DNA of 64,000 nt from Octopus vulgaris (taxonomy: Eukaryota): NCBI GenBank assembly GCA_951406725.2, contig OX597843.1:1240001-1304000 (forward strand), given 5' to 3'. Below are positions 31,759 through 64,000 of this stretch, piece by piece. Under the pieces are notes generated by a model. The model was not told the DNA's origin. It worked only from the letters and a program-made list of their open reading frames with translations, and made no database searches. Positions within the stretch are counted from its first letter, which is position 1; each line of letters opens with the position of its first letter. Both the position numbers and the translations under genes were made by a program.

Positions 31759-31793
<35 letters not shown>

Positions 31794-32761: not shown

Positions 32762-32886
32762 GTAAGTACTGATTGTATGCACGCAAACACACACACACTC
32801 ACTCTCTCTCACCTCCCTATCTCTCTTCCGCTCCCCTCCTCTGCTCTTTCCCTCCTCTCTCTTTTACTATATGATACATTGACACA

Positions 32887-33252
32887 GGAGGCGCAATGGC
32901 CCAGTGGTTAGGGCAGCGGACTCGCGGTTTCAATTCCCAGACCGGGCGTTGTGAGTGTTTATTGAGTGAAAACACCTAAAGCTCCACGAGGCTCCGGCAG
33001 GGGATGGTGGTGATCCCTGCTATACTCTTTCACCACAACTTTCTCTCACTCTTACTTCCTGTTTCTGTTGTACCTGTATTTCAAAGGGCCGGCCTTGTCA
33101 CTCTCTGTGTCACGCTGAATATCCCCGAGAACTACGTTAAGGGTACACGTGTCTGTGGAGTGCTCAGCCACTTACACGTTAATTTCACGAGCAGGCTGTT
33201 CCATTGATTAGATCAACCGGAACCCTCGTCGTCGTAACCGACGGAGTGCTTC
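32887..33252 (+). mobile_element. SINE family D
   Basis: Near-identical to 28376-28760; TSD ACATTGACACA. Confidence 0.9.
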
Positions 33253-33429
33253 TATCATCACATTGACACATAAAAGGATGTAATTTTGGATATACCTCAC
33301 TGGCTATCTCCAACTATTCTGCTATTTTTTCTTCAGCCGCCGGCCAGGATGCATCATAATTACCTAATGCAGCATTTCTCAACCATTTTTCATACCTAAA
33401 ATAATTAAATTATTTTGTGTAGAGGTGTA

Positions 33430-33968
<539 letters not shown>

Positions 33969-34237
33969 AAACAGAGAATATTATAAAAATTTAATCAATT
34001 TATTGGAGAAAAATTTTTAAGAACAAAATCGTATATGGTCCTTAGTTGAGAACCCAATTGACCTAATGCCAGTTAGGACCAGCTCTAATTGAGGAGGGGA
34101 GATAATTTCAAGTTTGAGCAATTTTTGCAAGCTAACTTGTCATTAACCCATTCATGCCAATTATCATGATAATAATACTAATTATATAGTCAATTGTATA
34201 CAATTAATTGCTTTATCATACACACACACAGACACAG

Positions 34238-34447
34238 ATCATCATCATCATCGTTTAACGTCCGTTCTCCATGCTAGCATGGGTTGGACGGTTCGACCGG
34301 GGATCTGGGAAGCCAGAAGGCTGCACCAGGCTCCAGTCTTATCTGGCAATGTTTCTACAGCTGGATGCCCTTCCTAACGCCAACCACTCCGTGAGTGTAG
34401 TGGGTGCTTTTTACGTGCCACCTGCACAGGTGCCAGGCGAGGCTGGC
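34238..34447 (-). mobile_element. SINE-like family B
   Basis: (CAT)n tail plus body. Confidence 0.8.
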
Positions 34448-35138
34448 AAAAAACTTGGAGAAGAGAAATAACGCGTGCGTTCGGTCATATAGTAATATAA
34501 TAAATAAATAAAATATATGCATATATACATACATATATGTACATACTTACATCTACATGTATATATACATGCATAGAGTACAGGACACCACAAATAAATG
34601 TGGAACACAACGAGAGACGGGAACATAAAATCAAACAAGGAAACGGACTTTTTTTAAACAACAAAAAACAGAGTACAGGACAAAAAATACAAGGAAAATT
34701 CCCCTTCATCAGCTGTCCCTGGTTCGACTCTGACCGGCTTCTTTCAGTTTCTATGTGCTAGGATTTGATTGGCCTAAGGCTATATAGTAGAAGACACTTG
34801 CCCAAGGTGCTGAACCATGTGGTTGGGAAGCAAGCTTGTTACCACAGAGCCATGCCTGGACCTCTGCCAACTCTGGAGAAATTTTGAATTTTGGAATTGT
34901 CTCTACTTCTCAAGTGGTGCTCAGACGAACACAGACACAAAGACTCCTGCACACACAAATGACATGCTTCCACAGTTTCTACCTGTCAAATTGACTTACA
35001 AAGCATTGGTCAGTCTAGGGCTATTGTAGAATACACTTTTCCAAACATGCTGCACAGTGGGGCAGAACCTGAAACCATGCGGTTTCAAAGTGACCTTCTT
35101 AACTGAACAGTTGTACCTGTATCTAGATATATCTATCA

Positions 35139-35728
35139 GGGCGGTGAGCTGGCTGAAACGTTAGTGCGCCAGGCGAAATGCTTAGCGGTATTTCGTCTGT
35201 CGCTACGTTCTGAGTTCAAACTCCGCCGAGGTCGTCTTTGCCTTTCATCCTTTCGGGGTCGATTAAATAAGTACCAGTTACGCACTGGGGTCGATGTAAT
35301 CGACTTAATTCGTTTGTTTGTCCTTGTTTGTCCCCTCTGTGTTTAGCCCCTTGTGGGTAGTAAAGAAATAGGTATTTCGTCTGCCGCTACGTTCTGAGTT
35401 CAAATTCCACCGAGGTCGACTTTGCCTTTCATCCATTCAGAGTCGATAAATTAAGTACCAGTTACGTATTGGGGTCGATATAATCGACTTAATTCGTTTG
35501 TTTGTCCTTGTTTGTCTTCTGTGTTTAGCCCCTTGTGGGTAGTAAAGAAATAGAAATAGGTATTTCGTCTGTCTTTACGTTCTGAGTTCAAATTCCGCTG
35601 AGGTCGACTTTGCCTTTCATCCTTTCGGGGTCGATTAAATAAGTACCAGTTATGCACTGGGGTCGATATAATCGACTTAATTCGTTTGTTTGTCCTCTGT
35701 GTTTAGCCCCTTGTGGGTAATAAAGAAA
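35139..35728 (+). mobile_element. SINE family C tandem/nested trimer
   Basis: One head followed by three body/tail units that restart at GGTATTTCGTCTG; outer TSD TAGATATATCTATC. Confidence 0.85.
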
Positions 35729-35863
35729 TAGATATATCTATCTTTCCCTCACTGCATTGATTTCCTTGAAAGGAACCTATTTCCATATCTCTGTTTCTCT
35801 CTCTTGTAGTCTTCCTAATGTCTGACTGATCCTTTTGTTTTCCCCTTCTTGCTCTCCTTACAG

Positions 35864-36068
35864 TTCCATGATGCTGAAGATGCAAAGAAAGCCCTGGAAC
35901 AACTGAATGGCTTTGAACTGGCTGGTAGACCAATGAAGGTTGGTCATGTAACAGAGCGAACCGCTGAAAATCAGGTGGCCTCTATACTGGACAGTGATGA
36001 CATGGATAGGGCTGGAATTGATCTTGGTGCTACACGCAGACTTCAGCTTATGGCCAAGTTGGCTGAAG
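35864..36068 (+). CDS. RBM39: RBM39 exon, end of RRM2 and linker
   Basis: Encodes FHDAEDAKKALEQLNGFELAGRPMKVGHVTER...GIDLGATRRLQLMAKLAE; donor G|GTACGT. Confidence 0.97.
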
Positions 36069-36134
36069 GTACGTCTTGCTTTTCTTTGTCTATTGTTGTG
36101 CTGTGGGTTTTATGTGTATAGTTGTATGTGTAGA

Positions 36135-36465
36135 CTGGCTTCCGTGCTGGTGGCACGTAAAATGCACCATCCAAATCGTGGCCGATGCCAGTGCCGCCTT
36201 GACTGGCTTCCGTGCAGGTGGCACGTAATATGCACCAATCTGATTGTGGCCATTGCCAGCCTCGTCTGGCACCTGTGCCGGTGGCACGTAAAAAGCACCC
36301 TCTACACTCATGGAGTGGTTGGCGTTAGGAAGGGCATCCAGCTGTAGAAACACTGCCAGATCAGACTGGAGCCTGGTGCAGCCTTCTGGCTTCCCAGATC
36401 CCCGGTCGAACCGTCCAACCCATGCTAGCATGAAGAACGGACGTTAAACGATGATGATGATGATG
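36135..36465 (+). mobile_element. SINE-like family B
   Basis: Three internal modules, core and (GAT)n tail. Confidence 0.8.
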
Positions 36466-36588
36466 TAGGTAGTTGACTGTTACAAAGTACGTCTGTGTGT
36501 GGGTGTAGATGACTGGATTTGTGTATGTATGTTTGGAATACTCAATGTCTGTGTTGCTAAATTTGATTGTTGAATTTGTGTATATAAT

Positions 36589-36880
36589 TCATCATCATCA
36601 TCGTTTAGCATCCGCTTTCCATGCTGGCATGGGTTGGACGGTGCAACAGGAGTCTGGGAAGCCAGAAGGCTGCACCAGGCCCAGTATGGTCTGGCAATGC
36701 TTCTACGGCTGGATGCCCTTCCTAACGCCAACCACTGAGTGTAGTGGGTGCTTTTTACGTGCTGCCGGCACAGGTGCCAGACGAGGCTGGCAAACGGCCA
36801 CGATCGAATGGTGCTTTTTATGTGCCACCGGCACTGGTATCATGGCTACAATTTCCATTGATGTTGATCGATTTTGATTT
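36589..36880 (-). mobile_element. SINE-like family B
   Basis: Inverted relative to 36135-36465. Confidence 0.8.
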
Positions 36881-37491
36881 TGACTAATAATTGACTATAT
36901 AATTATAATTATTATTATTATCATTCAGGCCACAACCTGGCAGAATCATTAGCATGCCAGGCGAAATGCTTAGCAGCGTTCTGTTTACCCCTATGTTCTG
37001 AGTTCAAATTCTGGCGAGGTGGACATCACTTTTCATCCTTTTGGGGGTCAATAAATTAAATACCAAGTGAAACACGGGGTGGTGGTGGCAGGGTTACGGC
37101 TCATTTTGGCCAGCTGAGAAAATGAGAAAGATCTCATAAAAGGGCATGAAAATCTGTTTATGAGTGTTAATCCGGTCTTAACAGTGGCATTTGTGGGTCT
37201 CACAGATCTGAAGGCCAAGTCCCCAGATAAACACTGATGTGCAGGCTATTGTTATCAAACTGTTTTACCTCTAGGAAGATCATTAGATAAATGGACAACC
37301 CAGAATTGGATAATGCAGTACGTAGGGTTCGGACTCTTCAAATAGGTTTGTCAACGTAAATTTGATTAGTCTTCATCAGCTGCATTTACCTAGGGAGTAT
37401 TTCAAATGTTGGTACATCAATGCCAGTATACTCGCCTGAACACTTAGCCGTTAACAGAACGGGAACAGTGAAAAAGTTTTCAATGAAGAAA

Positions 37492-37832
37492 TCGGAGACC
37501 CCCTTCGGTCACAACACAGACCATGGGATTGCACCTAGAAAGTTACCCTCCTAGACACAAGTCCGGGCAAGGTTGTTTATGGAAGACCAGCAGTCGCCCA
37601 TGCATACCAGCCTCCCCCATCCACGCCTCTAGTGTTATCCAAGGGAAAGACAAAGGTCGATACAGCTTGGCACCTGTGACGTCGCAACTCATTTCTACAG
37701 CTGAGTGAACTGGAGCAACGTGAAATAAAGTGCCTTGCTCAAGAACACAACACGCAGCCCGGTCCGGGATTCGAGCTCACAACCTCACGATCGTAAGCTC
37801 GACGCTCTAACCACTGAGCCATGCGCCTTCAC
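37492..37832 (-). mobile_element. tRNA-derived SINE family E
   Basis: Head GAAGGCGCATGGCTCAGTGGTTAGAGC...CTCGAATCC then GTTGTGTTCTTGAGCAAGGCACTTT; TSD ATGAAGAA; fragments at ~2995-3130 and ~39150-39270. Confidence 0.8.
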
Positions 37833-37912
37833 ATGAAGAATAAAATATATGAAAATGTTTATAATGTGTTGAGATAACTAATCAGTGTTTGTGTATGTTT
37901 TTTTATTTGTAG

Positions 37913-38348
37913 GTACTGGCTTCCAGATCCCACAATATGTGGCCAATGCCCTCAACATGAACTCATCCGGAGACACTGCTACACCACCACCAACTCCAGC
38001 TCCTAATCTATCTACCCAGTCACCAACGCCCATGCTACAAGCAAGCGCTGCTGCAGCGGCTGCTGCTGCTCTTGTCAATCTGACCAGTTCGGCACCGGTT
38101 GGTGTTACTGCTGGTGGTGCCGGCGGAAGTATTGCTGGTGGTGGAGGCGGTGGCGGCGGCAGTGGAGGCCTTGGTGGTGTCGGCGGTGTCGGTGCTGTTG
38201 GCACCGTTGGCAGTGTTGGTAGCGTTGGTGGTGGTGGCAGCAGTGGTACAGGCGGCAGTACTACCACAGGTCAGCCCACACAGGCTGCTAATGGACCACC
38301 AATCCCCACACAGTGTTTCATGTTGGCTAACATGTTTGACCCTTCTTC
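37913..38348 (+). CDS. RBM39: RBM39 exon, Ala/Gly-rich linker to start of UHM
   Basis: Encodes GTGFQIPQYVANALN...AAAAAAAA...GGGGGGG...PPIPTQCFMLANMFDPS; donor TC|GTGAGT. Confidence 0.93.
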
Positions 38349-38617
38349 GTGAGTACACATTTTTAACCTTTTTTGTTGTTTTATTTGCTAATTCATTCCT
38401 GATCTTGCTGACCCGTTAATCAGGTGACATACCAGATGGTGACCATCACCGACCTTATCATTGTTTTCTCATCTGCCCTTTCTATGCTGAATGGACATTA
38501 CATTAGGGTATGCCTGTCACAAACCCTAGATTTCATAAAGTCAAGCTTAGCCCACATAAGTGAAATTACAACATTGACCCTCTTAACAAGATGCCAGACT
38601 TTTGTCCCCAAAGTCCA

Positions 38618-38977
38618 TCCCCTCCTCACCGTGGTGGGGATGCTGGCAATGGTAGTGTCAGAGCTATGCCGTCGGGAACTTCAGTTCCTGGTAGGGCCAC
38701 CTAAGGCGGATTGGTCTGACACCAAGTGGTATTAGGGCCACAACCCGGCAGATGGGGCTCTGGTGAAAATCCTTGGAGTGTCTGCTTCGGCAACCGGTGG
38801 CTCCTTGGTTGTTCTGTCCCTGCGTCTGCGGACAATCTGTGGCAAACAGGATGTCTCCACATGCGGGATTGTTGGGGACCGCTTGTGAAATTCACATATT
38901 CCCACGAAACTTCTTCCATGAGTAGAAGAAGCCGACTCAACCCGCCCAGGGTGAATGTTGCCACAAGTACAAGTAAA
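38618..38977 (+). mobile_element. Bipartite non-autonomous RTE derivative (5'UTR-like segment fused to RTE 3' tail)
   Basis: 5' part GAGCTATGCCG...GTAGGGCCACCTAAGGCGGA..GGTC resembles RTE/BovB 5'UTRs; the 3' end GAAGCCGACTCAACCCGCCCAGGGTGAATG..CAAGTACAAGTA matches the RTE fragment at 42935-42990. Confidence 0.65.
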
Positions 38978-39359
38978 GACTATTGTGGCAGACGCCCGTA
39001 GGTGAGAAGTGGACTGACACGGTCAGTAGAGTCGGTCAGCAAAGGTACACCGTTCGGACCAGTCTGTAAGATGATGAAATACGCCGTCATCATGGGACAC
39101 ATCACAGACCATTGCAGGGTTAGCTTCACAGCTATTGCTGGTACTCCTTTACAGCTGAGTGGACTGGAGCAATGTGAAGTGAAGTATTTTACTCGAAAAC
39201 ACAATGTAGTGCCTTGTCCAGGAATTGAAACTATGATTTTTATGACCATGAGTGCAACAACTTAACCATGAAGCTATATATCATCACATTGTCGACATAG
39301 TATTTCCTCTCCTCAACCAGTTTCTCTGATCTTTTGCAATAACTGGGCATATTTTATTT

Positions 39360-39784
39360 TTAACCCTTTAGTGTTCAGATTATTTAATCAAACATAATGC
39401 TTATAGATTCCCATTGATTTGGATTAATCATGCATTATCTCATATCTTCAAGATCTTGATGGTGTAATTACTTAATGTAGAATAACATTGTAGGGTAGGT
39501 GTGAGAGCCTGGATCTGGTCAGTTTGAGCATAAAACAGGAAGACAATTTTGGCCTGATATGGCCGGTTTAAATACTAAAGGGTTAAACCGGCTGTATCCG
39601 GCCCAAATATTCTGCTCATTTTATGCTCAAACTGGCCAGAACTAGTATCTCACACTTACCCTGCAATGTCATTCTAAAAATAAACAATTACATCTTTCAA
39701 ATCTTGAAGCTACCAGATTAATTTTTTAAAATGTAAATGAATAAGGATTACTTTTGACCTTAATTTGAATGCTAAAGGGTTAAG
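39360..39784. mobile_element. Two piggyBac-like MITEs in opposite orientation
   Basis: TTAACCCTTTAG...CTAAAGGGTTAA followed immediately by an inverted copy ending CTAAAGGGTTAA. Confidence 0.75.
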
Positions 39785-40579
39785 CACACCAACAATGGCC
39801 AAGCACTGTAAAAGGTTGCGAGTGTTCTACTCATGACTATCTTGTCTGTTTAGTGGCTGTGTTATCCAGCGTATCATTCTTTTGTTCAAGACAGGAACCC
39901 ATTCAATTTTTAGCAAGATTTAAGGAATCCATTCAATTTTTAGCAAGATTTAGCTGCTAGTTCTAGCGAGTCAAAGGCATGTAGTCTTGCTTTTTGTGTT
40001 ATTGTTGATTGTCATAGTAGTGGTGTTGGTGGTGGTGGTGGCTGTTATTTCTTGCTAGTTGAGATACCATATACTGACTCCCTTGTCTTCGTGTTTGTAT
40101 ATTCTCTCCTCCTCTTCTATCTCTCTCTTTCCATCTCCCCTCCTTTTTATTCTCATCTTTATTCCCCCTCTCTCTCTCTTCATCTACCCCCTCTCTCTCG
40201 CTGCCCTCCCCTCTTTCTCTCTTTCTCTTTATCTCTCCCCATACTCTCTTTCCCTCTCCTTTTCTCAGTTTTTTATCTCACTTTCTCTCTTCATCTTCCC
40301 CTCTTTCTCTACCTTTCTGCCTCTCCCTTTCCCTCTCTCTCTCTTCATCTACCCCCCTCTCTCTCTCGCTGTCCTCCCCTCTTTCTCTTTATCTCTCCCC
40401 ATACTCATTTTCCCTCTCCTTTTCTCTGTTTTTATCTCACTTTCTCTGTCTTCATCTTCCCCTCTTTCTCTACCTTTCTGCCTCTCCCTTTCCCTTTATC
40501 TCTCCCTCTCTCTCTCTCTCTCTCTATGCCTCTGTCTCCCTGCTCTCTCTAACAATGACGTCTCTTCTTCCTTTTGTAG

Positions 40580-40764
40580 GGAATCCAAGGTGAACTGGGA
40601 TCAAGAGATCCGAGATGATGTCATTGAGGAGTGCAACAAACACGGTGGTGTAGTGCACATCTATGTGGACAAAGCTTCTGTACTGGGCAATGTCTATGTA
40701 AAGTGTCCCAATATTGCAGCAGCAGTCGCATCTGTCAATGCGCTGCATGGCAGATATTTTGCAG
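40580..40764 (+). CDS. RBM39: RBM39 exon, UHM/RRM3
   Basis: Encodes ESKVNWDQEIRDDVIEECNKHGGVVHIYVDKASVLGNVYVKCPNIAAAVASVNALHGRYFA (RxF UHM motif). Confidence 0.97.
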
Positions 40765-40854
40765 GTAAGCACTTTTGCTGTTGTTTAGGCCTTAGGCCAT
40801 TTGTGTGGTGGAAGCTGGTCCAGCTGTGAAAATATTAGATTTTATTCAGACACA

Positions 40855-47207: not shown

Positions 47208-47236
47208 ATAGCATGGCCTGCTAGCTGAAGATACCT

Positions 47237-47432
47237 ATTTCTTTACTACCCACAAGGGGCTAAACACAGAGAAGACAAACAAGGACAGACACACGGATTA
47301 AGTCGATTATATCGACTCCAGTGTGTAACTGGTACTTAATTTAATCTGAGTTTGAACTCAGAACGTAACGGCAGACGAAATACGGCTACGCATTTCGCCT
47401 GGCGTGCTAACGTTTCTGCCAGCTCGCCGCCT
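47237..47432 (-). mobile_element. SINE family C, internally deleted
   Basis: 15-bp TSD TAGCTGAAGATACCT. Confidence 0.85.
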
Positions 47433-49078: not shown

Positions 49079-49224
49079 TACTGTAAATTTCGGGCCTTGT
49101 GCCTAGAGTAGAAAATAATGTGTGTGTGATTGCGTGTGCGCATGTATCTGTACTGCATGGCTGTGTCAGTGTGTCCGTCCCGTTGATTTGATCAAAGCCT
49201 GCCTTTCTATGCTATGAGGATGAC

Positions 49225-51248
49225 ATCTCTGTGTATGTGTGTTCGTTCCGTAGACAAAGCATCAACCGTGCTCTGTGTTCGTGTGTTCGTTCCGTCTACA
49301 TAGCATCAACCTCGCTCTGTCTGTGTTCGTGTGTTCGTTCCGTCTACATTGCATCAACCTCGCTCTGCCTGTGTTCATGTGTTCGTTCCGTCTACATAGC
49401 ATCAACCGCGCTCTGTCTGTGTTCGTGTGTTCGTTCCGTAGACATAGCATCAACCGCGCTCTGTGTATGTGTGTTCGTTCCGTCTACATAGCATCAACCT
49501 CGCTCTGTCTGTGTTCGTGTGTTCGTTCCGTCTACATAGCATCAACCGCGCTCTGTGTATGTGTGTTCGTTCCGTCTACATAGCATCAACCTCGCTCTGT
49601 CTGTGTACGTGTGTTCGTTCCGTGTACATAGCACCAACCTCGCTCTGTCTGTGTTCGTGTGTTCGTTCCGTCTGCATAGCATCTACCTCGCTCTGTCTGT
49701 GTACGTGTGTTCGTTCCGTTTACATAGCATCAACCTCGCTCTGTGTACGTGTGTTCGTTCCGTTTACATAGCATCAACCTCGCTCTGTGTACGTGTGTTC
49801 GTTCCGTTTACATAGCATCAACCTCGCTCTGTGTACGTGTGTTCGTTCCGTTTACATAGCATCAACCTCGCTCTGTGTACGTGTGTTCGTTCCGTTTACA
49901 TAGCATCAACCTCGCTCTGTGTACGTGTGTTCGTTCCGTTTACATAGCATCAACCTCGATCTGTGTACGTGTGTTCGTTCCGTTTACATAGGATCAACCT
50001 CGCTCTGTGTACGTGTGTGCGTTCCGTTTACATAGCATCAACCTCGCTCTGTGTACGTGTGTTCGTTCCGTTTACATAGCATCAACCTCGCTCAGTGTAC
50101 GTGTGTTCGTTCCGTTTAAATAGGATCAACCTCGCTCTGTGTACGTGTGTTCGTTCCGTTTACATAGCATCAACCTCGCTCTGTGTACGTGTGTTCGTTC
50201 CGTTTACATAGCATCAACCTCGCTCTGTGTACGTGTGTTCGTTCCGTTTACATAGCATCAACCTCGCTCTGTGTACGTGTGTTCGTGCCGTTTACATAGC
50301 ATCAACCTCGCTCTGTGTACGTGTGTGCGTTCCGTAGACATAGCATCAACCTCGCTCTGTGTACGTGTGTTCGTTCCGTTTACATAGCATCAACCTCGCT
50401 CTGTGTACGTGTGTTCGTTCCGTAGACATAGCATCAACCTCGCTCTGTGTACGTGTGTTCGTTCCGTAGACATAGCATCAACCTCGCTCTGTGTACGTGT
50501 GTTCGTTCCGTTTACATAGCATCAACCTCGCTCTGTGTACGTGTGTTCGTTCCGTAGACATAGCATCAACCTCGCTCTGTGTACGTGTGTTCGTTCCGTC
50601 TACATAGCATCAACCTCGCTCTGTGTACGTGTGTTCGTTCCGTAGACATAGCATCAACCTCGCTCTGTGTACGTGTGTTCGTTCCGTAGACATAGCATCA
50701 ACCTCGCTCTGTGTACGTGTGTTCGTTCCGTAGACATAGCATCAACTTCGCTCTGTGTATGTGTGTTCGTTCTGTAGACATGGCATCTACCTTGCTCTGT
50801 GTACGTGTGTTCGTTCCGTAGACATAGCATCAACCTCGCTCTGTGTACGTGTGTTCGTTCCGTAGACATAGCATCAACCTCGCTCTGTGTACGTGTGTGC
50901 GTTCCGTAGACATAGCATCAACCTCGCTCTGTGTACGTGTGTTCGTTCCGTAGACATAGCATCAACCTCGCTCTGTGTACGTGTGTTCGTTCCGTAGACA
51001 TAGCATCAACCTCGCTCTGTGTACGTGTGTTCGTTCCGTAGACATAGCATCAACCTCGCTCTGTGTACGTGTGTTCGTTCTGTTTACATAGCATCAACCT
51101 CGCTCTGTGTACGTGTGTGCGTTCCGTTTACATAGCCTCAACCTCGCTCTGTGTAAGTGTGTGCGTTCCGTAGACATAGCATCAACCTCGCTCTGTGTAC
51201 GTGTGTTCGTTCTGTTTACATAGCATCAACCTCGCTCTGTGTACGTGT
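49225..51248. repeat. Satellite array, left part (44-bp monomer; 44/48 mix at the edge)
   Basis: Monomer CTCTGTGTACGTGTGTTCGTTCCGTAGACATAGCATCAACCTCG. Confidence 0.97.
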
Positions 51249-51494
51249 TGTTTTATTATTACCCACAAGGGGCGAACACAGATGGGACAATACATTCTGA
51301 TGATGGGGTCAGACAAACGAATGGGTTTTTACAATAAATCGGGTTTTAAAATTTTCATGAATAACAATAAATGGACAAAAATCGAGTGATAGGACAGACC
51401 GGAAGACATTACGGGTGGAGTGGGTGCGGGTTTAGCTCGGACCCCACGAGCCCCGCCTCCCCACTGATACTTTTGGTTGCACTTGGTATTACAT

Positions 51495-54400
51495 TTATGT
51501 TGTAACTTTCATTCGCAACTTCCGTGCTACATCCATCCATCGTTCTTCATACGCTCTCCTAGTCAGGCATATTCTCTCCAGCCCTATCTTCCTTTTCAGG
51601 TGAAAGATGAAATAATTCATCAAACCAGGGCCGGAGATGAACTTGCCTGACTGTAAACCTTTCATTCTCGTCTTCCATATCACCTCTTTCGCGATTGCTA
51701 CTACAACGAGAAAACGAAACTTACCTTCATTCACGAGGAAATCCGGTGGGTCAATTTTTGTAATCGACTCAGTCGACAGCTGTACTCTTCGTGTACCTGA
51801 CAACAGGTGTTCGGCATAAACCCACACCTCAGACACGTCCGGACAATGAACAATCGCGTGCGGGACGGTTTCCCTATCCCGCCCGCATCTTGGACATATC
51901 GGACTGTCTTGGCCACCGTGCCTTGCGAGTTTATCCCGAACAGGTAGAGCTCCTCTGTAGCATTGCCATGCCAGAGACTTCTGGAAGTTGTCCAGTGTCC
52001 TTGGCTCGAACGTACGTCGGAACAGACTGGCCAGCTGATTATCGTCGAGACCTAGGGTTTCCCCCAAGGTATCTTCACATTCCGCCTCTACCAACCCTCT
52101 ATAGAAGAAAGTGGTGGAACCCCCACCGCAGGCGTTGCCCGAGCGACGGAATAGCAGGAGAGCCTTGCGACACTCCGTGTACCAAGTACCAAGTTTCGAT
52201 CTACGACTCAGCCAGGTTTCCCATCCACCGAAACTAGTGAACTTGGGAAACATCAGTTTTGCTAGCGAAGACCACACCCGTTCACTATCCAGGTAGAGCC
52301 ACAGATGTCTTAACCTCAGCGCATGTCTGCGCATCATCAGCCAAGGCATCCCTAGCCCACCCTTTAACGGTTGTTGACAGCAAGTAGAGCGTTTCACAAG
52401 TGGTTTCCCGCCCTTCCACAAGAAGTAGAAGAGCTGTCTTTCCAACTTGATCAACCACGAATCAGGGCAAGGAACGACGGAAAGGCGGTAGGTGATAACC
52501 GATGCGATAAACACATTGGCCACCTCCGCCCTCCCTTTCAGGGATAGCCACCGCCAAGACCAGGTCTTGGCTACTGCAGCCACCTTGCTCGTTACCTCGC
52601 CCCAATTCTTCTCTATTTGGAGGTCTGGACCGAACCAGACCCCTAGCAGTTTAATCGGACCCTCCGTCCAACGTCCCACGACGCTGTCAGGAGGCATCGA
52701 CTTGCCTCTCCAGGTGCCGAGTTGCAAGCCGACTGACTTTTCGCGATTAACTTTTGCTCCTGTCACCGTCTCGTACACCTCTATGGCCTTGCCTACTTTA
52801 CATAGGTGGTCCATTTCGGTTACGATGATGGTGATGTCATCCGCGTACGCTGACACTGATTTTCCATTACCTGGCTGTCTCGGGATGCCGCTCAGTTTTC
52901 GCAGTAATGGCTCAAGAGCCATCACGTACAAAAGCGGGGAGAGCGGACACCCTTGACGAACCGAGCGTTTGATTTTGAACGGCTTCGACAAGAAGCCGTT
53001 CACCCGAACTACCGAGTCGATGTTATCATAAATTTCGATAATCCACCTGAGGAATCCAAGGCTCAGCCCGAACTGTGCCAGGGCAGATACCAGGTAACGA
53101 TGGTCGACCCTATCAAAAGCTTTAGATTGGTCTAAATGGACCAGTGCCCCACCCTTGCCAGAATCACTATTAAACCCCTCTATAGTGTACCGCATTAGAT
53201 GGAGATTATCCTGAATGGATCTGCCCGGAACGGCACATGTCTGTGCCCCTCCGATCAGACCATCCGCGACACGCGCCAATCTTTTCGATAACACTTTGGC
53301 CAAAATCTTCAACTCTGTGTTTAGCAGAGTGATGGGCCTGAAATTATCAATGCACTCCCCCTTGCTCGGGTCCTTTCTGACGAGAGTCACTACTCCCCGG
53401 CGCACAGATCTGGGTATAAGCCCGTTCTGCTGCCAGTTCGCGTAGACCTCCGCCAGTAGGTGCCCGAACAAGTCTGGCATACTCTTATATAACTCATAGG
53501 GTAGACCATCCAAACCCGGCGCCTTGCCCGCGCCGCAGTCCGCCATTGCCTCAACCACCTCCTCAGGCGTGATTGGCCCTTCACAGCCCTCCGCATCTCG
53601 CCCCGATAAGCGCGGCAGACCGTCGAGTAGGTCCGTAAAGGCCCTCCTCCTATCCAGTCCGCCGCACTCACCGAAAAGCTGAGCGAAGTGCTCCTGAAAG
53701 GCCTCACACATCTCCTCGGGTTCGTTTATCAACTCACCTTGTTGGTTCGTCAAAGATCGAATCGTGGCATCGTTACCATGCTGAGCTTCCACCACTCGGG
53801 CCCATCTCACGGCGTTGATTCCTTCACATCCCATATGACGGATTCTAGCCCTGACAATGCAGCCCATGTGTTTGGCCTCGAGGTGCTGGTTTAACACCAG
53901 TCTCTTGGCCGCCACCTGAGCCGCAGAGCCAGTTTTCATGGCTTCCTCTAATTCCTTAACTAGAGTAGTTTCCCTTCTAGCCTCTCTAGCCACTACTCCT
54001 ATGCTATATCTAATAGACTCAAACTTGATGGCTCGTTTGAGGGCGTACCACCATTTGTTATTAATGATGGTACCAGATAGTGCCCTCTGAATTATATTCC
54101 TAATCCGGTCTTTGTACTCCTTAATCGCCAAAAGGGACGTATTAAGTTTCCAGTAACCGGATCCTCTATTTTTAACCTTATCTATGTCAAGCTTACAAGT
54201 GACCATTTTATGATCACTGTAGCTGATCGGGTAAAACTGTGGACACTTAGCTATTTTACTGTCTACTTTTCTAATTAGTATTCTATCTAGATACGACCTG
54301 GAAGATCCGTCGCTGTTTGACCATGTCCACAATGGAGCGTTCGGAAATTCCAGCCTATAAGGATCTGCTAGCTCAAAGCGGCTTAGCAGTTCCATGAAGC

Positions 54401-54890
54401 CACTGTTGCCTTTTCTATCTGGACACGAGCCAACATAATCTACATCCGCTTTGCAAATTGTGTTAAAGTCTCCTAGCACCACTAATGAATGCGAAGTACC
54501 AAGAAAGTTTTCTAGTTCACGAAAATAATCACTTTGCCCTGTATGGTTGGGTGCGTAAATTGCAACCAGTCTGATAACTTTACCATTACTGAACGTCAAA
54601 TCCATGACGACCAGACTACCTTCTGGATCTGCAAAAATTAACTTTTTCTCAGAAACCCGGTTTCTTTTTAATAGGACCAACACCCCACTCCCGCCTGTAG
54701 GACTGCCAGGAGAGAAAAAACTCTCGTAGCCGTCAAACAGCGGGAGTAGACCTCTTGGCCCCTCTAGCCGGGTTTCTGTAGCAACAATAACATCTAAATT
54801 ACGCGACCTGATATCATGCAGGAAGCGACCTTGCTTCCAGCCTGCTCCCAGGCCGCGCACATTTAAACAACCAACATAAATGTAATCCAT
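51495..54890 (-). CDS. Tx1/L1 ORF2: APE endonuclease, reverse transcriptase and C-terminal CCHC (1131 aa, uninterrupted)
   Basis: Motifs LNVRGL, ETR, IYAPN, GDFN, LDRILI, SDH (APE); GYWKLNTSLL; KAPGLDG, FRPITLLN, DQSKAFDRV, RQGCPLSP, YADD (RT); CPRC-x8-H-x4-C. Confidence 0.97.
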   Translation of the reverse strand: MDYIYVGCLNVRGLGAGWKQGRFLHDIRSRNLDVIVATETRLEGPRGLLPLFDGYESFFSPGSPTGGSGVLVLLKRNRVSEKKLIFADPEGSLVVMDLTFSNGKVIRLVAIYAPNHTGQSDYFRELENFLGTSHSLVVLGDFNTICKADVDYVGSCPDRKGNSGFMELLSRFELADPYRLEFPNAPLWTWSNSDGSSRSYLDRILIRKVDSKIAKCPQFYPISYSDHKMVTCKLDIDKVKNRGSGYWKLNTSLLAIKEYKDRIRNIIQRALSGTIINNKWWYALKRAIKFESIRYSIGVVAREARRETTLVKELEEAMKTGSAAQVAAKRLVLNQHLEAKHMGCIVRARIRHMGCEGINAVRWARVVEAQHGNDATIRSLTNQQGELINEPEEMCEAFQEHFAQLFGECGGLDRRRAFTDLLDGLPRLSGRDAEGCEGPITPEEVVEAMADCGAGKAPGLDGLPYELYKSMPDLFGHLLAEVYANWQQNGLIPRSVRRGVVTLVRKDPSKGECIDNFRPITLLNTELKILAKVLSKRLARVADGLIGGAQTCAVPGRSIQDNLHLMRYTIEGFNSDSGKGGALVHLDQSKAFDRVDHRYLVSALAQFGLSLGFLRWIIEIYDNIDSVVRVNGFLSKPFKIKRSVRQGCPLSPLLYVMALEPLLRKLSGIPRQPGNGKSVSAYADDITIIVTEMDHLCKVGKAIEVYETVTGAKVNREKSVGLQLGTWRGKSMPPDSVVGRWTEGPIKLLGVWFGPDLQIEKNWGEVTSKVAAVAKTWSWRWLSLKGRAEVANVFIASVITYRLSVVPCPDSWLIKLERQLFYFLWKGGKPLVKRSTCCQQPLKGGLGMPWLMMRRHALRLRHLWLYLDSERVWSSLAKLMFPKFTSFGGWETWLSRRSKLGTWYTECRKALLLFRRSGNACGGGSTTFFYRGLVEAECEDTLGETLGLDDNQLASLFRRTFEPRTLDNFQKSLAWQCYRGALPVRDKLARHGGQDSPICPRCGRDRETVPHAIVHCPDVSEVWVYAEHLLSGTRRVQLSTESITKIDPPDFLVNEGKFRFLVVVAIAKEVIWKTRMKGLQSGKFISGPGLMNYFIFHLKRKIGLERICLTRRAYEERWMDVARKLRMKVTT

Positions 54891-54904
54891 TACTTACCTT
54901 TATA

Positions 54905-56279
54905 TCAGTGGTTCGGTTTTTTCTTCTTCTTCCTTCTCTTTTTCTGGGCCTCGTGGGGAGTCTGACGTAGGCCCTCGAATATATGTGGAGATGTTACATC
55001 CAACCTAAGTGGGCCTACGTCATGGAAGAAATCTGACTTTATCCGCCCGTAATCCTTCCGGTCTATTTTGTAAATTGCAAAGTCATTTTTTTTCTCTACT
55101 CTCTTCACATTGGCCATGGCTGCCAACACGTTTCCGAGTCTGCTATTTGATGCTTTTACAGCCATATATGAGTTTATTGACTCTTTTTTCTTTTTTAAAA
55201 TTACTCTGGGAGGGGTGGTTTCCGTTTTTCTTTTTTTTTTTCCGATAATTTTTGCCCACCCCTCCTCATTTATCTTTTCTTCGCTCTTTTTTTCCTCCGC
55301 CGCTGGTTCTGCTGTTACCATCACCTCCACACCTTCAGTCTTCCCATCTGGGCCGTCTGACGCTGCTTCTGATGACACATTGTCTTCTTTTTCCTTTTGG
55401 CTTAGGTGCTTCCTGCGGTTTGGGTTGGGGCTGGCATTCCGCCCTTACATGCCCCTTCTTACCGCAGCCGAAGCACCTCGGCTTTCTGCCCTCTACGAAG
55501 ACTGTGACTCTTTCATCTTCGCTTATCCTAAGAGTCTCTGGGATCTCTTCCAGGGTTTGTACTTCTGCTTGTATGGCTATTATTATCTTTTGCCCTTTCC
55601 AGAATTCTTCTTCTTCTACGGTGGCCTGGAGGATGTTTATTTTTTCCTCCAGGCCTACCATAACTGCTGCCACTAAGACTTCGGCATCCGCTTCTGGCGG
55701 GATGTTGTTCATAGTGATTTTGGAAGTTCTCTTGCCTTTATACAGGGGTAGGAGAACAATATCCTCTGCTTTTATGGGTTCCATGGATAGCTTCTTTGCT
55801 ACCTCCTCTGACGTGAATCTCACCTCCACTGTGCCGTATTTCTTCCCTCGATTGATATACGTAATTTTGTCCATTATTGGCTTTAAGCAGTTTTCAATCT
55901 TTTTCTCTTCTATTTTTTGGATTGCTCTGTTTGTTATACTGAATGTCTTATAGATTATTCTCCTATTCGAAATATCCTCTTGTATTTTGGCGTTTGAAGC
56001 CACGGTTACTTCTGTGCCCTCTTTTGACACACAGTCTGCATGTTTTCCCAGGTTGTCCACGTTAATTTTTTTAATTTTCTTCCCAGCCACTTCAGCGAAT
56101 TTTTTTGCTGGAGTTGATGCTGGTACTGGTTTTACCATTTTCTTGGGCGACGCCGCCTCTTTTTTCTTCGGCGACAGCGCCTCTTTTTTTCTTGGCGACA
56201 ACGCCTCTTTTTTACTTGGCGACAACGCCGGGTATTCCTCCTCGCTCGTCACGGGCGAATAAGTGATGGGGGACTCCAT
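54905..56279 (-). CDS. Tx1/L1 ORF1 (nucleic-acid binding, zinc knuckle) split by one frameshift near 55395
   Basis: ATG at 56279; SPKK-like repeats; CFGCGKKGHVRAEC knuckle; the reading continues in another frame (KEKEDNVSSEAAS...) to TGA at 54905. Confidence 0.8.
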
Positions 56280-56362
56280 TTTGAACAAATGGCTTTAACA
56301 AGCCTTTGGTAATCTAAATTGATTGTAGTTTTCCCCCACTGAGGGGGGAACACCAACACCAA

Positions 56363-59300
56363 CATCAACCTCGCTCTGTGTACGTGTGTTCGTTCTGTTT
56401 ACATAGCATCAACCTCGCTCTGTGTACGTGTGTGCGTTCCGTTTACATAGCATCAACCTCGCTCTGTGTACGTGTGTTCGTTCCGTAGACATAGCATCAA
56501 CCTCGCTCTGTGTACGTGTGTTCGTTCCGTTTACATAGCATCAACCTCGCTCTGTGTACGTGTGTTCGTTCCGTCTACATAGCATCAACCTCGCTCTGTG
56601 TACGTGTGTTCGTTCTGTTACATAGCATCAACCTCGCTCTGTGTACGTGTGTTCGTTCCGTAGACATAGCATCAACCTCGCTCTGTCTGTACGTGTGTTC
56701 GTTCCGTAGACATAGCATCAACCACGCTCTGTGTACGTGTGTTCGTTCTGTCTGCATAGCATAAACCTCGCTCTGTGTACGTGTGTTCGTTCCGTAGACA
56801 TAGCATCAACCTCGCTCTGTGTACGTGTGTTCATTCCGTAGACATAGCATCAACCTCGCTCTGTGTACGTGTGTTCGTTCCGTAGACATAGCATCAACCT
56901 CGCTCTGTGTATGTGTGTTCGTTCCGTAGACATGGCATCTACCTTGCTCTGTGTACGTGTGTTCGTTCCGTCTACATAGCATCAACCTCGCTCTGTGTAC
57001 GTGTGTTCGTTCTGTTTACATAGCATCAACCTCGCTCTGTGTACGTGTGTTCGTTCCGTAGACATAGCATCAACCTCGCTCTGTGTACGTGTGTTCGTTC
57101 CGTAGACATAGCATCAACCTCGCTCTGTGTACGTGTGTTCGTTCTGTTTACATAGCATCAACCTCGCTCTGTGTACGTGTGTGCGTTCCGTTTACATAGC
57201 ATCAACCTCGCTCTGTGTACGTGTGTTCGTTCTGTTTACATAGCATCAACCTCGCTCTGTGTACGTGTGTGCGTTCCGTTTACATAGCATCAACCTCGCT
57301 CTGTGTACGTGTGTTCGTTCCGTAGACATAGCATCAACCTCGCTCTGTGTACGTGTGTTCGTTCCGTAGACATAGCATCAACCTCGCTCTGTGTACGTGT
57401 GTGCGTTCCGTAGACATAGCATCAACCACGCTCTGTGTACGTGTGTTCGTTCCGTAGACATAGCATCAACCTCGCATAAACTCAATCTGTCTGTGTACGT
57501 GTGTTCGTTCCGTAGACATAGCATCAACCTCGCTCTGTGTACGTGTGTTCGTTCTGTTTACATAGCATCAACCTCGCTCTGTGTACGTGTGTGCGTTCCG
57601 TAGACATAGCATCAACCTCGCTCTGTGTACGTGTGTTCGTTCCGTAGACATAGCATCAACCTCGCTCTGTGTACGTGTGTTCGTTCCGTTTACATAGCAT
57701 CAACCTCGCTCTGTGTACGTGTGTTCGTTCCGTAGACATAGCATCAACCTCGCTCCGTGTATGTGTGTTCGTTCTGTCTGCATAGCATAAACACCAATCT
57801 GTCTGTGTACGTGTGTTCGTTCCGTAGACATAGCATCAACCACGCTCTGTGTACGTGTGTTCGTTCTGTCTGCATAGCATAAACATAAATCTGTCTGTGT
57901 ACGTGTGTTCGTTCCGTAGACATAGCATCAACCACGCTCTGTGTATGTGTGTTCGTTCTGTCTGCATAGCATAAACATCAATCTGTCTGTGTACGTGTGT
58001 TCGTTCCGTAGACATAGCATCAACCACGCTCTGTGTATGTGTGTTCGTTCTGTCTGCATAGCATAAACATCAATCTGTCTGTGTACGTGTGTTCGTTCCG
58101 TAGACATAGCATCAACCACGCTCTGTGTATGTGTGTTCGTTCTGTCTGCATAGCATAAACATCAATCTGTCTGTGTACGTGTGTTCGTTCCGTAGACATA
58201 GCATCAACCACGCTCTGTGTACGTGTGTTCGTTCTGTCTGCATAGCATAAACATCAATCTGTCTGTGTACGTGTGTTCGTTCCGTAGACATAGCATCAAC
58301 CACGCTCTGTGTACGTGTGTTCGTTCTGTCTGCATAGCATAAACATCAATCTGTCTGTGTACGTGTGTTCGTTCCGTAGACATAGCATCAACCACGCTCT
58401 GTGTATGTGTGTTCGTTCTGTCTGCATAGCATAAACATCAATCTGTCTGTGTACGTGTGTTCGTTCCGTAGACATAGCATCAACCACGCTCTGTGTACGT
58501 GTGTTCGTTCTGTCTGCATAGCATAAACATAAATCTGTCTGTGTACGTGTGTTCGTTCCGTAGACATAGCATCAACCACGCTCTGTGTACGTGTGTTCGT
58601 TCTGTTTGCATAGCATAAACATCAATCTGTCTGTGTACGTGTGTTCGTTCCGTAGACATAGCATCAACCACGCTCTGTGTATGTGTGTTCGTTCTGTCTG
58701 CATAGCATAAACACCAATCTGTCTGTGTACGTGTGTTCGTTCCGTAGACATAGCATCAACCACGCTCTGTGTATGTGTGTTCGTTCTGTCTGCATAGCAT
58801 AAACACCAATCTGTCTGTGTACGTGTGTTCGTTCCGTAGACATAGCATCAACCACGCTCTGTGTATGTGTGTTCGTTCTGTCTGCATAGCATAAACATCA
58901 ATCTGTCTGTGTACGTGTGTCGTTCCGTAGACATAGCATCAACCACGCTCTGTGTATGTGTGTTCGTTCTGTTTGCATAGCATAAACATCAATCTGTCTG
59001 TGTACGTGTGTTCGTTCCGTAGACATAGCATCAACCACGCTCTGTGTACGTGTGTTCGTTCTGTCTGCATAGCATAAACATCAATCTGTCTGTATAAGTG
59101 TGTTCGTTCCGTAGACATAGCATCAACCACGCTCTGTGTACGTGTGTTCGTTCTGTTTGCATAGCATAAACATCAATCTGTCTGTGTACGTGTGTTCGTT
59201 CCGTAGACATAGCATCAACCACGCTCTGTGTATGTGTGTTCGTTCTGTTTGCATAGCATAAACATCAATCTGTCTGTGTACGTGTGTTCGTTCCGTGGAC

Positions 59301-62300
59301 ATAGCATCAACCACGCTCTGTGTATGTGTGTTCGTTCTGTCTGCATAGCATAAACACCAATCTGTCTGTGTACGTGTGTTCGTTCCGTAGACATAGCATC
59401 AACCACGCTCTGTGTACGTGTGTTCGTTCTGTTTGCATAGCATAAACATCAATCTGTCTGTGTACGTGTGTTCGTTCCGTAGACATAGCATCAACCACGC
59501 TCTGTGTATGTGTGTTCGTTCTGTTTGCATAGCATAAACATCAATCTGTCTGTGTACGTGTGTTCGTTCCGTAGACATAGCATCAACCACGCTCTGTGTA
59601 TGCGTGTTCGTTCTGTCTGCATAGCATAAACATCAATCTGTCTGTGTACGTGTGTTCGTTCCGTAGACATAGCATCAACCACGCTCTGTGTACGTGTGTT
59701 CGTTCTGTCTGCATAGCATCAACATCAATCTGTCTGTGTACGTGTGTTCGTTCCGTAGACATAGCATCAACCACGCTCTGTGTATGTGTGTTCGTTCTGT
59801 CTGCATAGCATAAACATAAATCTGTCTGTGTACGTGTGTTCGTTCCGTAGACATAGCATCAACCTCGCTCTGTGTATGTGTGTTCGTTCTGTCTGCATAG
59901 CATAAACATCAATCTGTCTGTGTACGTGTGTTCGTTCCGTAGACATAGCATCAACCACGCTCTGTGTATGTGTGTTCGTTCTGTCTGCATAGCATAAACA
60001 TCAATTTGTCTGTGTACGTGTGTTCGTTCCGTAGACATAGCATCAACCTCGCTCTGTGTACGTGTGTTCGTTCCGTAGACATAGCATCAACCACGCTCTG
60101 TGTACGTGTGTTCGTTCTGTCTGCATAGCATAAACATAAATCTGTCTGTGTACGTGTGTTCGTTCCGTAGACATAGCATCAACCTCGCTCCGTGTATGTG
60201 TGTTCGTTCTGTTTAGCATAGCATAAACATCAATCTGTCTGTGTACGTGTGTTCGTTCCGTCTACATAGCATCAACCACGCTCTGTGTATGTGTGTTCGT
60301 TCTGTCTGCATAGCATAAACATCAATCTGTCTGTGTACGTGTGTTCGTTCCGTAGACATAGCATCAACCACGCTCTGTGTATGTGTGTTCGTTCTGTCTG
60401 CATAGCATAAACATCAATCTGTCTGTGTACGTGTGTTCGTTCCGTAGACATAGCATCAACCACGCTCTGTGTATGTGTGTTCGTTCTGTCTGCATAGCAT
60501 AAACATCAATCTGTCTGTGTACGTGTGTTCGTTCCGTAGACATAGCATCAACCACGCTCTGTGTATGTGTGTTCGTTCTGTCTGCATAGCATAAACATCA
60601 ATCTGTCTGTGTACGTGTGTTCGTTCCGTAGACATAGCATCAACCACGCTCTGTGTATGTGTGTTCGTTCTGTCTGCATAGCATAAACATCAATCGCTCT
60701 GTGTACGTGTGTTCGTTCTGTTTACATAGCATCAACCTCGCTCTGTGTACGTGTGTGCGTTCCGTGTCTGCATAGCATAAACACCAATCTGTCTGTGTAC
60801 GTGTGTTCGTTCCGTAGACATAGCATCAACCTCGCTCTGTGTACGTGTGTTCGTTCTGTTTACATAGCATCAACCTCGCTCTGTGTACGTGTGTTCGTTC
60901 CGTAGACATAGCATCAACCTCGCTCTGTGTACGTGTGTTCGTTCTGTCTGCATAGCATAAACATCAATCTGTCTGTGTACGTGTGTTCGTTCCGTAGACA
61001 TAGCATCAACCACGCTCTGTGGACGTGTGTTCGTTCTGTCTGCATAGCATAAACATCAATCTGTCTGTGTACGTGTGTTCGTTCCGTAGACATAGCATCA
61101 ACCACGCTCTGTGTATGTGTGTTCGTTCTGTCTGCATAGCATAAACATCAATCTGTCTGTGTACGTGTGTTCGTTCCGTAGACATAGCATCAACCACGCT
61201 CTGTGTATGTGTGTTCGTTCTGTCTACATAGCATCAACCTCGCTCTGTGTACGTGTGTTCGTTCCGTAGACATAGCATCAACCTCGCTCTGTGTACGTGT
61301 GTTCGTTCTGTCTGCATAGCATAAACATCAATCTGTCTGTGTACGTGTGTTCGTTCCGTAGACATAGCATCAACCACGCTCTGTGTATGTGTGTTCGTTC
61401 TGTCTGCATAGCATAAACATCAATCTGTCTGTGTACGTGTGTTCGTTCCGTAGACATAGCATCAACCACGCTCTGTGTACGTGTGTTCGTTCTGTCTACA
61501 TAGCATCAACCTCGCTCTGTGTACGTGTGTTCGTTCCGTAGACATAGCATCAACCTCGCTCTGTGTAAGTGTGTTCGTTCTGTCTACATAGCATCAAACA
61601 TAAATCTGTCTGTGTACGTGTGTTCGTTCCGTAGACATAGCATCAACCACGCTCTGTGTATGTGTGTTCGTTCTGTCTGCATAGCATAAACATCAATCTG
61701 TCTGTGTACGTGTGTTCGTTCCGTAGACATAGCATCAACCACGCTCTGTGTACGTGTGTTCGTTCCGTAGACATAGCATCAATCTCGCTCTGTGTACGTG
61801 TGTTCGTTCCGTAGACATAGCATCAACCACGCTCTGTGTATGTGTGTTCGTTCTGTCTGCATAGCATAAACATCAATCTGTCTGTGTACGTGTGTTCGTT
61901 CCGTAGACATAGCATCAACCACGCTCTGTGTATGTGTGTTCGTTCTGTCTGCATAGCATAAACAACCACGCTCTGTGTACGTGTGTTCGTTCCGTAGACA
62001 TAGCATCAACCACGCTCTGTGTATGTGTGTTCGTTCTGTCTGCATAGCATAAACATCAATCTGTCTGTGTACGTGTGTTCGTTCCGTCTACATAGCATCA
62101 ACCACGCTCTGTGTACGTGTGTTCGTTCTGTCTGCATAGCATAAACATCAATCTGTCTGTGTACGTGTGTTCGTTCCGTAGACATAGCATCAACCACGCT
62201 CTGTGTATGTGTGTTCGTTCTGTCTGCATAGCATAAACATCAATCTGTCTGTGTACGTGTGTTCGTTCCGTAGACATAGCATCTACCTCGCTCTGTGTAC

Positions 62301-64000
62301 GTGTGTTCGTTCTGTCTACATAGCATAAGAATCACTCTGTCTGTGTACGTGTGTTCGTTCCGTAGACATAGCATCAACCACGCTCTGTGTATGTGTGTTC
62401 GTTCTGTCTGCATAGCATAAACATCAATCTGTCTGTGTACGTGTGTTCGTTCCGTTTACATAGCATCAACCACGCTCTGTGTAAGTGTGTTCGTTCCGTC
62501 TGACATAGCATCAACCTCGCTCTGTGTACGTGTGTTCGTTCCGTTTACATAGCATCAACCTCGCTCTGTGTACGTGTGTTCGTTCCGTTTACATAGCATA
62601 AACATCATTCTCTCTGTGTACGTGTGTTCGTTCCGTAGACATAGCATCAACCTCGCTCTGTGTACGTGTGTTCGTTCCGTCTGCATAGCATAAACACCAA
62701 TCTGTCTGTGTACGTGTGTTCGTTCCGTAGACATAGCATCAACCTCGCTCTGTGTACGTGTGTTCGTTCTGTTTGCATAGCATAAACGTTAATCTGTCTG
62801 TGTACGTGTGTTCGTTCCGTAGGCATAGCATCAACCACGCTCTGTGTACGTGTGTTCGTTCTGTCTGCATAGCATAAACATCAATCTGTCTGTGTACGTG
62901 TGTTCGTTCCGTTTACATAGCATCAACCTCGCTCTGTGTACGTGTGTTCGTTCCGTCTACATAGCATAAACATCAATCTGTCTGTGTACGTGTGTTCGTT
63001 CCGTGGACATAGCATCAACCACGCTCTGTGTACGTGTGTTCGTTCTGTCTGCATAGCATAAACATCAATCTGTCTGTGTACGTGTGTTCGTTCCGTGGAC
63101 ATAGCATCAACCACGCTCTGTGTACGTGTGTTCGTTCTGTCTGCATAGCATAAACACCAATCTGTCTGTGTATGTGTGTTCGTTCCGTGGACATAGCATC
63201 AACCACGCTCTGTGTACGTGTGTTCGTTCTGTCTGCATAGCATAAACGTCAATCTGTCTGTGTACGTGTGTTCGTTCCGTAGACATAGCATCAACCACGC
63301 TCTGTGTACGTGTGTTCGTTCTGTCTGCATAGCATAAACATCAATCTGTCTGTGTACGTGTGTTCGTTCCGTAGACATAGCATCAACCTCGCTCTGTGTA
63401 CGTGTGTTCGTTCCGTTTACATAGCATCAACATCATTCTCTCTGTGTACGTGTGTTCGTTCCGTAGACATAGCATCAACCTCGCTCTGTGTACGTGTGTT
63501 CGTTCCGTTTACATAGCATAAACATCAATCTGTCTGTGTACGTGTGTTCGTTCCGTAGACATAGCATCAACCACGCTCTGTGTACGTGTGTTCGTTCTGT
63601 TTGCATAGCATAAACATCAATCTGTCTGTGTACGTGTGTTCGTTCCGTAGACATAGCATCAACCACGCTCTGTGTACGTGTGTTCGTTCTGTTTGCATAG
63701 CATAAACATCAATCTGTCTGTGTACGTGTGTTCGTTCCGTTTACATAGCATCAACCACGCTCTGTGTACGTGTGTTCGTTCTGTTTGCATAGCATAAACA
63801 TCAATCTGTCTGTGTACGTGTGTTCGTTCCGTAGACATAGCATCAACCACGCTCTGTGTATGTGTGTTCGTTCTGTCTGCATAGCATAAACATCAATCTG
63901 TCTGTGTACGTGTGTTCGTTCCGTAGACATAGCATCAACCACGCTCTGTGTACGTGTGTTCGTTCTGTTTGCATAGCATCCACATCAATCTGTCTGTGTA
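56363..64000. repeat. Satellite array, right part: 44-bp monomers, then a 92-bp (44+48) higher-order repeat from ~57740; runs off the window end
   Basis: Alternating ...ATCAACCACG and ...ATAAACATCAATCTGT monomers; spurious ORFs recur every 92 bp. Confidence 0.97.

Follow-up and report, generated by a model that had tools for sequence, protein, structure and literature searches.

Inspection of a 64-kb stretch of the Octopus vulgaris genome (hereafter the window) showed an array of a 44-bp satellite to be interrupted by a Tx1-type non-LTR retrotransposon of 5114 bp. The insertion is real and young. This LINE ends without poly(A), in a tail that it shares with a dispersed octopus SINE, and this is a more unusual point than the targeting of a satellite. 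The reading we favor, with a probability of about one half, is that the element is a young Octopus Tx1-type LINE of a lineage guided by its 3′ tail, that an older or sister member of that lineage mobilized the SINE, and that the satellite acts as a landing pad rather than as an exclusive niche.

The non-satellite insert runs from 51249 to 56362 on the minus strand and, as the preliminary description had stated, lies in the zone of 44-bp monomers. It has the layout of a LINE, with an 83-nt 5′-UTR (56280–56362, minus strand), ORF1 (54905–56279, minus strand), a 14-nt spacer, ORF2 (51495–54890, minus strand) and a 246-nt 3′-UTR. The uninterrupted ORF2 reported earlier was indeed stop-free from 54890 to 51495, and its 1131 residues include an APE endonuclease (residues 23–227), a reverse transcriptase (RT; 511–752, with YADD at 682) and a zf-RVT domain (971–1023). 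The 5′-UTR opens with two TTGGTG units followed by a C-run/G-run hairpin (56331–56350) similar to hairpins in the 5′-UTRs of relatives. On the plus strand these units read CACCAA-CACCAA (56351–56362) and continue into the CATCAA of the satellite, as first described. Since relatives carry TTGTT-rich sequence before the same kind of C-run hairpin, the two units probably belong to the 5′-UTR of the element, and an origin in the target was rejected. At its other end the element lacks poly(A) and terminates in AATAAAACA; the tail common to the SINE (51249–51291, minus strand) contains a CUUGU loop between GCCC and GGGU, and then AATAAA.

The 25-bp repeat CATCAACCTCGCTCTGTGTACGTGT, noted previously at both flanks, was present at 51224–51248 and 56363–56387. 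When flank duplications of 1–399 bp were tested, two lengths were exact, 25 and 69 bp; the longer one comprises 51180–51248 on the left, of which the final 25 bp are those noted previously, and 56363–56431 on the right (both plus strand). The earlier choice between a 25-bp duplication and a 19-bp deletion therefore stands for both of its terms but was incomplete, 69 bp being equally exact. As an identical copy of a rare monomer variant (m5) was found on either side of the insert, the choice lies among 25, 69 and −19 bp. The array contains eight copies of m5. Among the six that do not touch the element, the next monomer was m9 in three and m5 in none, and the order m5-m9-m5 occurred once. A 69-bp duplication would restore a common monomer order, a 25-bp duplication would imply an order not observed at all, and a deletion of 19 bp one observed a single time. 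Since these counts are small, all three possibilities were kept. Target duplications are fixed in Tx1L (23 bp) and Tx2L (29 bp), and long ones do occur, as indicated by a distant relative inserted in a U1 gene with an exact duplication of 157 bp.

The array occupies 49227–51248 and 56363–64000 (plus strand), parsed into 46 and 168 monomers, respectively. The left arm starts with a mixed 44/48-bp edge and continues as homogeneous 44-bp monomers; 48-bp monomers were also seen at this edge (49304–49727). The 44-bp zone that houses the insert extends from about 49728 to 57741, and from about 57742 the right arm consists of a 92-bp (44+48) dimer that leaves the window. Counts of the motif GTGTAYGTGTGT were 199 for the array and two for the rest of the 64 kb. 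The satellite contains no tRNA according to ARAGORN, the array had a single, chance-level match in Rfam (mir-282, E = 0.43) and no fold signal was detected; on these grounds an RNA gene or a known family was rejected. No satellite-related sequence was found elsewhere in the window, and the literature surveyed, which excluded subscription journals, Repbase and bioRxiv supplements, yielded no account of a 44-bp satellite of this kind.

The assignment to the Tx1 type is supported by both proteins. ORF2 combines an N-terminal APE endonuclease, an RT and a C-terminal zinc finger, has no RNase H, and keeps its catalytic motifs in place. ORF1 proteins of the Tx1 clade contain RRM-like domains and a CCHC knuckle, unlike the ORF1p of mammalian L1. 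The ORF1 found here has one CCHC knuckle (zf-CCHC match at E = 0.046, below the Pfam cut-off) and features resembling those of RRM plus CCHC proteins; its homologue P0303, a named Octopus sinensis protein, had its closest clusters, at 0.90–0.92, among CCHC, RRM and ZCCHC3-like proteins. The predicted structure of ORF1 was uninformative (pLDDT 35.6) and was set aside. ORF1 occupies two frames, with a break near 55390–55400 in A-rich sequence. Since P0303 spans both frames as a single 450-aa protein, the break is either a mutation or an assembly error. One ORF1 relative, from O. sinensis, showed 97.5% identity over 162 aa. Further relatives at 61–62% were found in O. sinensis and O. vulgaris, indicating that several sister families exist; the relatives at 98, 62 and 61% sit on Octopus scaffolds of four different lengths. 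Relatives of ORF2 include sequences from Argonauta and a cuttlefish.

The youth claimed for the element at the outset is supported by its intact catalytic motifs and by the near-identical ORF1 elsewhere. In a toy model whose rates were assumed, a single disruption over ∼4.8 kb of coding sequence is compatible with decay of less than about 1%, which makes ‘young’ a reasonable description. The accompanying statement that every other LINE in the window is a decayed fragment could not be confirmed, as no other LINE was detected. ORF2 and eight other RT proteins matched this element only, and RT or APE domains were found in none of 135 other ORFs (135 of the 258 ORFs of at least 60 aa; all 135 of at least 75 aa), tests that would miss highly decayed or non-coding LINE pieces.

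The relatives for which flanking DNA could be inspected comprised 42 loci from one scan of prokaryotic assemblies. Forty of them (L001–L037 and L040–L042) are eukaryote-like contigs of one binned bacterial assembly (CAXXMW01), a biased sample, because binning favors high-copy arrays. Their ORF2 proteins are 38–43% identical to that of the window element and their ORF1 is homologous to its ORF1 (E = 8e-16), although the second ORF1 frame gave no significant match to them. An RT tree was built with 37 of 38 chosen rows (P0186 was too short), 31 of the proteins having been picked from several hundred matches. The window element and the CAXXMW01 relatives fell in one clade with 100/100 support. 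In this tree, which did not include Tx1L, Keno, Kibi or Mutsu, a 95/93 group contained the element, the distant relative L039 and a fungal protein whose label, ‘Transposon TX1’, is the name given by its source; plant L1 stood apart.

In all 40 of these loci, on contigs of 13–94 kb, the elements form head-to-tail arrays of themselves on a single strand. For 47 of 52 3′ ends another ORF2 followed within 3.2 kb, and the other five ends were cut by the end of the locus. The junctions within the arrays are varied and some members are 5′-truncated. At L029, the only array edge seen, the neighboring sequence is ordinary repeat-rich DNA and not satellite. The assembly contains several Tx1-type families with near-identical ORF2 and differing 5′-UTR and ORF1, an arrangement that recalls the telomeric arrays of Drosophila. 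Like the window LINE, these relatives have a homologous ORF1, an ORF2 of 39% identity placed in the same RT clade, a CUHGU hairpin, no poly(A) and a C/G hairpin in the 5′-UTR. They differ from it in their self-arrays, in a second hairpin before AATAAA, and in a longer ORF1 and endonuclease loop. Of the two remaining loci, L038 was uninformative. L039 (28% identity; L039:3036–10170) is a Tx1-type element inserted in a U1 snRNA gene, carrying a short A-tail unlike the CAXXMW01 ends; its 157-bp duplication leaves an intact U1 upstream. Short stretches of the L039 5′-UTR seem to resemble the beginning of histone H4 and histone H3 genes.

The final ∼42 nt of the window LINE resemble the 3′ terminus of a dispersed tRNA-type SINE of ∼232 bp, with 83–89% identity over 28–43 nt and collinearity up to the last base. 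The match scored 50; across 1005 other windows of 45 nt taken from the LINE no score exceeded 22, and none of 10,000 shuffles reached 50. Inspection by eye of four other dispersed repeat families of the window showed no such tail in them. Eight SINE tails were found at six loci, plus one head-only piece. Copies with target duplications are located at 10401–10630 (minus strand, 13 bp), 14801–15032 (minus strand, 12 bp, with A- and B-box-like motifs), 15596–15826 (plus strand, 11 bp), 35140–35730 (plus strand, 14 bp; a SINE with two more 184-bp tandem units, hence three tails) and 47236–47431 (minus strand, 15 bp, with an internal deletion). A further copy (10953–11138, minus strand) is truncated at its 5′ end, where a short segment is inverted, a pattern that twin priming would produce. 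The short length, the clean 11–15-bp target duplications at five of the six loci, and the A-box-like (position 11–13) and B-box-like (position 74–75) motifs present in all five copies checked agree with a tRNA-derived SINE, although ARAGORN identified no intact tRNA in it. Its motif suggests that it may be of the Deu/Nin type.

All five SINE duplications begin with ARRTAT, at position 1 or 2, while the background frequency of this motif is 0.0019 per position. This suggests that the machinery used by the SINE is motif-biased but dispersed. Either a preference of the endonuclease or pairing with the end of the SINE RNA itself may account for the motif. ARRTAT is absent from the satellite array, and the LINE's own site agrees with it at only four of six positions, and only after a shift, a fit reached by chance in 40% of cases (P = 0.40); ARRTAT is thus unsupported as the target of the LINE itself. 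The insertion signatures of the two elements differ, since the SINE duplications of 11–15 bp match none of the values 25, 69 and −19 considered for the LINE copy. None of the SINE loci lies inside the array, although this absence (0 of 7) does not amount to avoidance (P = 0.29). Four SINE copies diverge from one another by 9.5–13% (six pairs), indicating that they are older than the LINE copy, and they may record the targeting of a sister family. Partner LINEs are usually recognized by the tail that they share with a SINE (PMC4494074, PMC3747384). Judged from the sequences compared here, an older or sister member of the lineage is more likely to have mobilized the SINE than this exact family.

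Hairpins of related form are present at the 3′ ends of the relatives. None of 49 relative ends contained poly(A), defined as a run of six A starting within 25 nt. The CAXXMW01 ends show an AGGC-CUHGU-GCCU hairpin followed by AATAAA, and the window LINE and the SINE have the same CUHGU loop inside GCCC/GGGU; between the two groups, G-C and C-G stem pairs are swapped round a near-invariant loop. Stem pairing was kept in 95.8% of cells with changes on both sides, a covariation that amounts to one change between two groups, in rows picked by a motif chosen by eye. In the window LINE alone, the pentaloop hairpin was not the best fold (closing-pair probability 0.31, z = −1.25). Taken as sequence comparison, these observations are suggestive of a conserved 3′ pentaloop hairpin common to the lineage. 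About 100 bp to the left of the array (49082–49120, plus strand) there is an orphan 3′ tail whose hairpin has the form seen in the relatives, GGC-CTTGT-GCC; it is the only exact match in the window.

The insertion can be described by a model that starts from what was directly observed, namely the anatomy, the intact ORF2, the junctions, the shared tail, the target bias of the SINE and the array habit of the relatives. The LINE would have inserted by target-primed reverse transcription. ORF2p would have nicked the plus strand near TACGTGT^GTTCG, and the 3′ end of the RNA (...AAUAAAACA[AC], with no poly(A)) would have been primed from the GTGT end through GTGT/ACAC microhomology. The 5′ end would then have been joined by microhomology between TTGGTG of the element and TTGATG of the satellite, in the same or the next monomer, generating the 25- or 69-bp duplication. 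Since every monomer offers both GTGT and TTGATG, the length of the duplication is fixed only modulo 44. The lineage would select its template by the 3′ tail, and an older or sister member would have mobilized the tRNA-type SINE bearing the same tail. Target choice would most likely depend on a short motif plus end-microhomology, in which case the satellite would be a dense and harmless landing pad rather than an exclusive niche. A bolder version, in which a poly(A)-less, hairpin-recognizing L1/Tx1 lineage of animals drives a major octopus SINE and repeatedly changes its target, from dispersed ARRTAT sites in the past, as recorded by the SINE, to self-arrays in relatives and the 44-bp satellite in the youngest octopus family, seems rather unlikely. 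If it were true, the ancestral target would be preserved in the SINE as a datable fossil, and a change to satellite specificity could be tested directly in one genome.

The preliminary description suggested instead that the family may use the satellite as its niche. In its strict form, this reading makes the family specific to the 44-bp satellite, with an endonuclease that recognizes the monomer and with copies placed at one position and in one orientation. A strong satellite preference of the family is plausible but less likely than not. It is judged from a single insertion, and the ∼214 monomers contained neither a second copy nor a 3′ fragment. Satellites make up just 3.12% of the O. vulgaris genome (PMC13282606, in the part cited), and the concentration of GTGTAYGTGTGT in the array would suit such a preference. 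Both informative groups of relatives are site-restricted, with self-arrays at 40 of 42 loci and the U1 insertion, but the array relatives carry the bias of their single binned assembly, and the one array edge seen adjoins no satellite. The dispersal of the tail-sharing SINE also speaks against it, with the reservation on avoidance given above. Satellite targeting is not a new idea for Tx1, in which known families target satellites, microsatellites, snRNA genes or transposons, and satellites appear in print as ‘Sat, satellites’ in the legend to Figure 3 of PMC4494074, where, in the portion cited, a family counts as site-specific when >20% of its copies are flanked by one target. Simple odds give 0.40–0.78 for specificity if 2–10% of young copies are in such families, these priors being assumed. 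With 13 young L1-Tx1 families and 421 copies given for O. vulgaris (PMC13282606, same part), about 13 young copies are expected to lie in satellites by chance.

This last figure also favors the absence of any real site preference, in which case the element would have reached the array at random and would persist there because such arrays are neutral to selection. This possibility seems improbable, since the SINE sites are clearly non-random. The endonuclease loop has the same length as that of the promiscuous human L1 and is two residues shorter than the Tx1L graft (PMC1950540, in the part cited), but the U1-targeting relative L039 has a loop of identical length; loop length was therefore rejected as a specificity marker. 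It is very improbable that the junctions are secondary, produced by unequal exchange, by conversion from another array or by an assembly artefact. In favor of this, a long-read error could explain the ORF1 frameshift in A-rich sequence, duplicated flanks carry little weight within tandem DNA, and 69 bp is long. However, both ends are clean and element-like, the tail is collinear with that of the SINE to the last base, and the monomer variants agree across the insert.

Members of the Tx1 clade (Tx1L, Keno, Kibi, Koshi, Tx1-Mar, Tx1-1_ACar) resemble the window LINE in having two ORFs, a CCHC ORF1, an APE-RT-zinc finger ORF2 and insertion in multicopy DNA. The window LINE differs in lacking poly(A) and in sharing its 3′ end with a SINE. 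Targets listed in the part of PMC4494074 cited are transposons, U2, U5, 5S, microsatellites and satellites, and a telomere-specific Tx1 is mentioned in a cited passage of PMC10088271. The crocodilian SINEU and Tx1-Mar are also a SINE tied to a Tx1 partner, but that link was inferred from shared targets, while the octopus pair shares a tail and not a target; in the same part of PMC4494074, no LINE similar to the 3′ half of SINEU-1 was found, and SINEU ends in poly(A). More similar 3′ ends, shared by an L1-clade LINE and a tRNA SINE, are those of maize ZmSINE2/3 with LINE1-1_ZM and Chlamydomonas SINEX-3_CR with L1-1_CR (PMC3747384, Table 1). These pairs have a conserved hairpin-forming 3′ end and stringent recognition (PMC3747384, in the part cited) but are hosted by plants and algae, and the 2013 table of 58 SINE-LINE pairs contains no Tx1 partner and no mollusc.

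For the same host group, octopus L1-Tx1 and tRNA-Deu repeats have been reported, the latter as a main SINE class (PMC13282606, PMC8967140); in the sections cited, these papers count families and give neither targets nor SINE-LINE pairing. SINEs represent ∼11.6% of the O. vulgaris genome, with their partner LINEs unnamed in that part of the account, and the mean length of young L1-Tx1 copies is 5436 bp (from data in PMC13282606, same part). No SINE sharing its tail with a Tx1 element was found in the literature surveyed, although Repbase, Dfam or SINEBase may already annotate the pair. Because its tail accompanies an intact Tx1-type ORF2, the octopus SINE now has a candidate engine, and the pairing would carry stringent 3′-end recognition in the L1 group beyond plants and algae, to animals. 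Should the family prove satellite-specific, a habit already known for Tx1 would gain one more case, and comparison with the older, dispersed SINE would show specificity arising. If both pairing and specificity fail, the element is an ordinary one among several hundred young Tx1-type copies.

The interval between the two ORFs of the LINE contains a perfect splice-donor motif (AAG/GTAAGT; 54892–54900, minus strand), as does that of four of six relatives checked; a donor-like motif directly follows the ORF2 stop in five of the six. Splicing or U1 binding possibly accounts for these motifs. Elsewhere in the window, the exons of an RBM39-like splicing-factor gene were observed at 31433–40829 (plus strand), about 8 kb from the array, and a U6 snRNA gene or pseudogene at 19283–19388 (plus strand, 108.8 bits). 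Between 2590 and 49080 there are at least four other dispersed families: one of ∼390 bp (e.g. 8644–9034), one of ∼235 bp with a CAT-repeat end (18313–18549), one of ∼380 bp (28380–28759) and a ∼226-bp MITE-like element with TTAA ends (24415–24640). A perfect 33-bp minisatellite is present at 3645–3976, with 10.1 copies at 100% identity.
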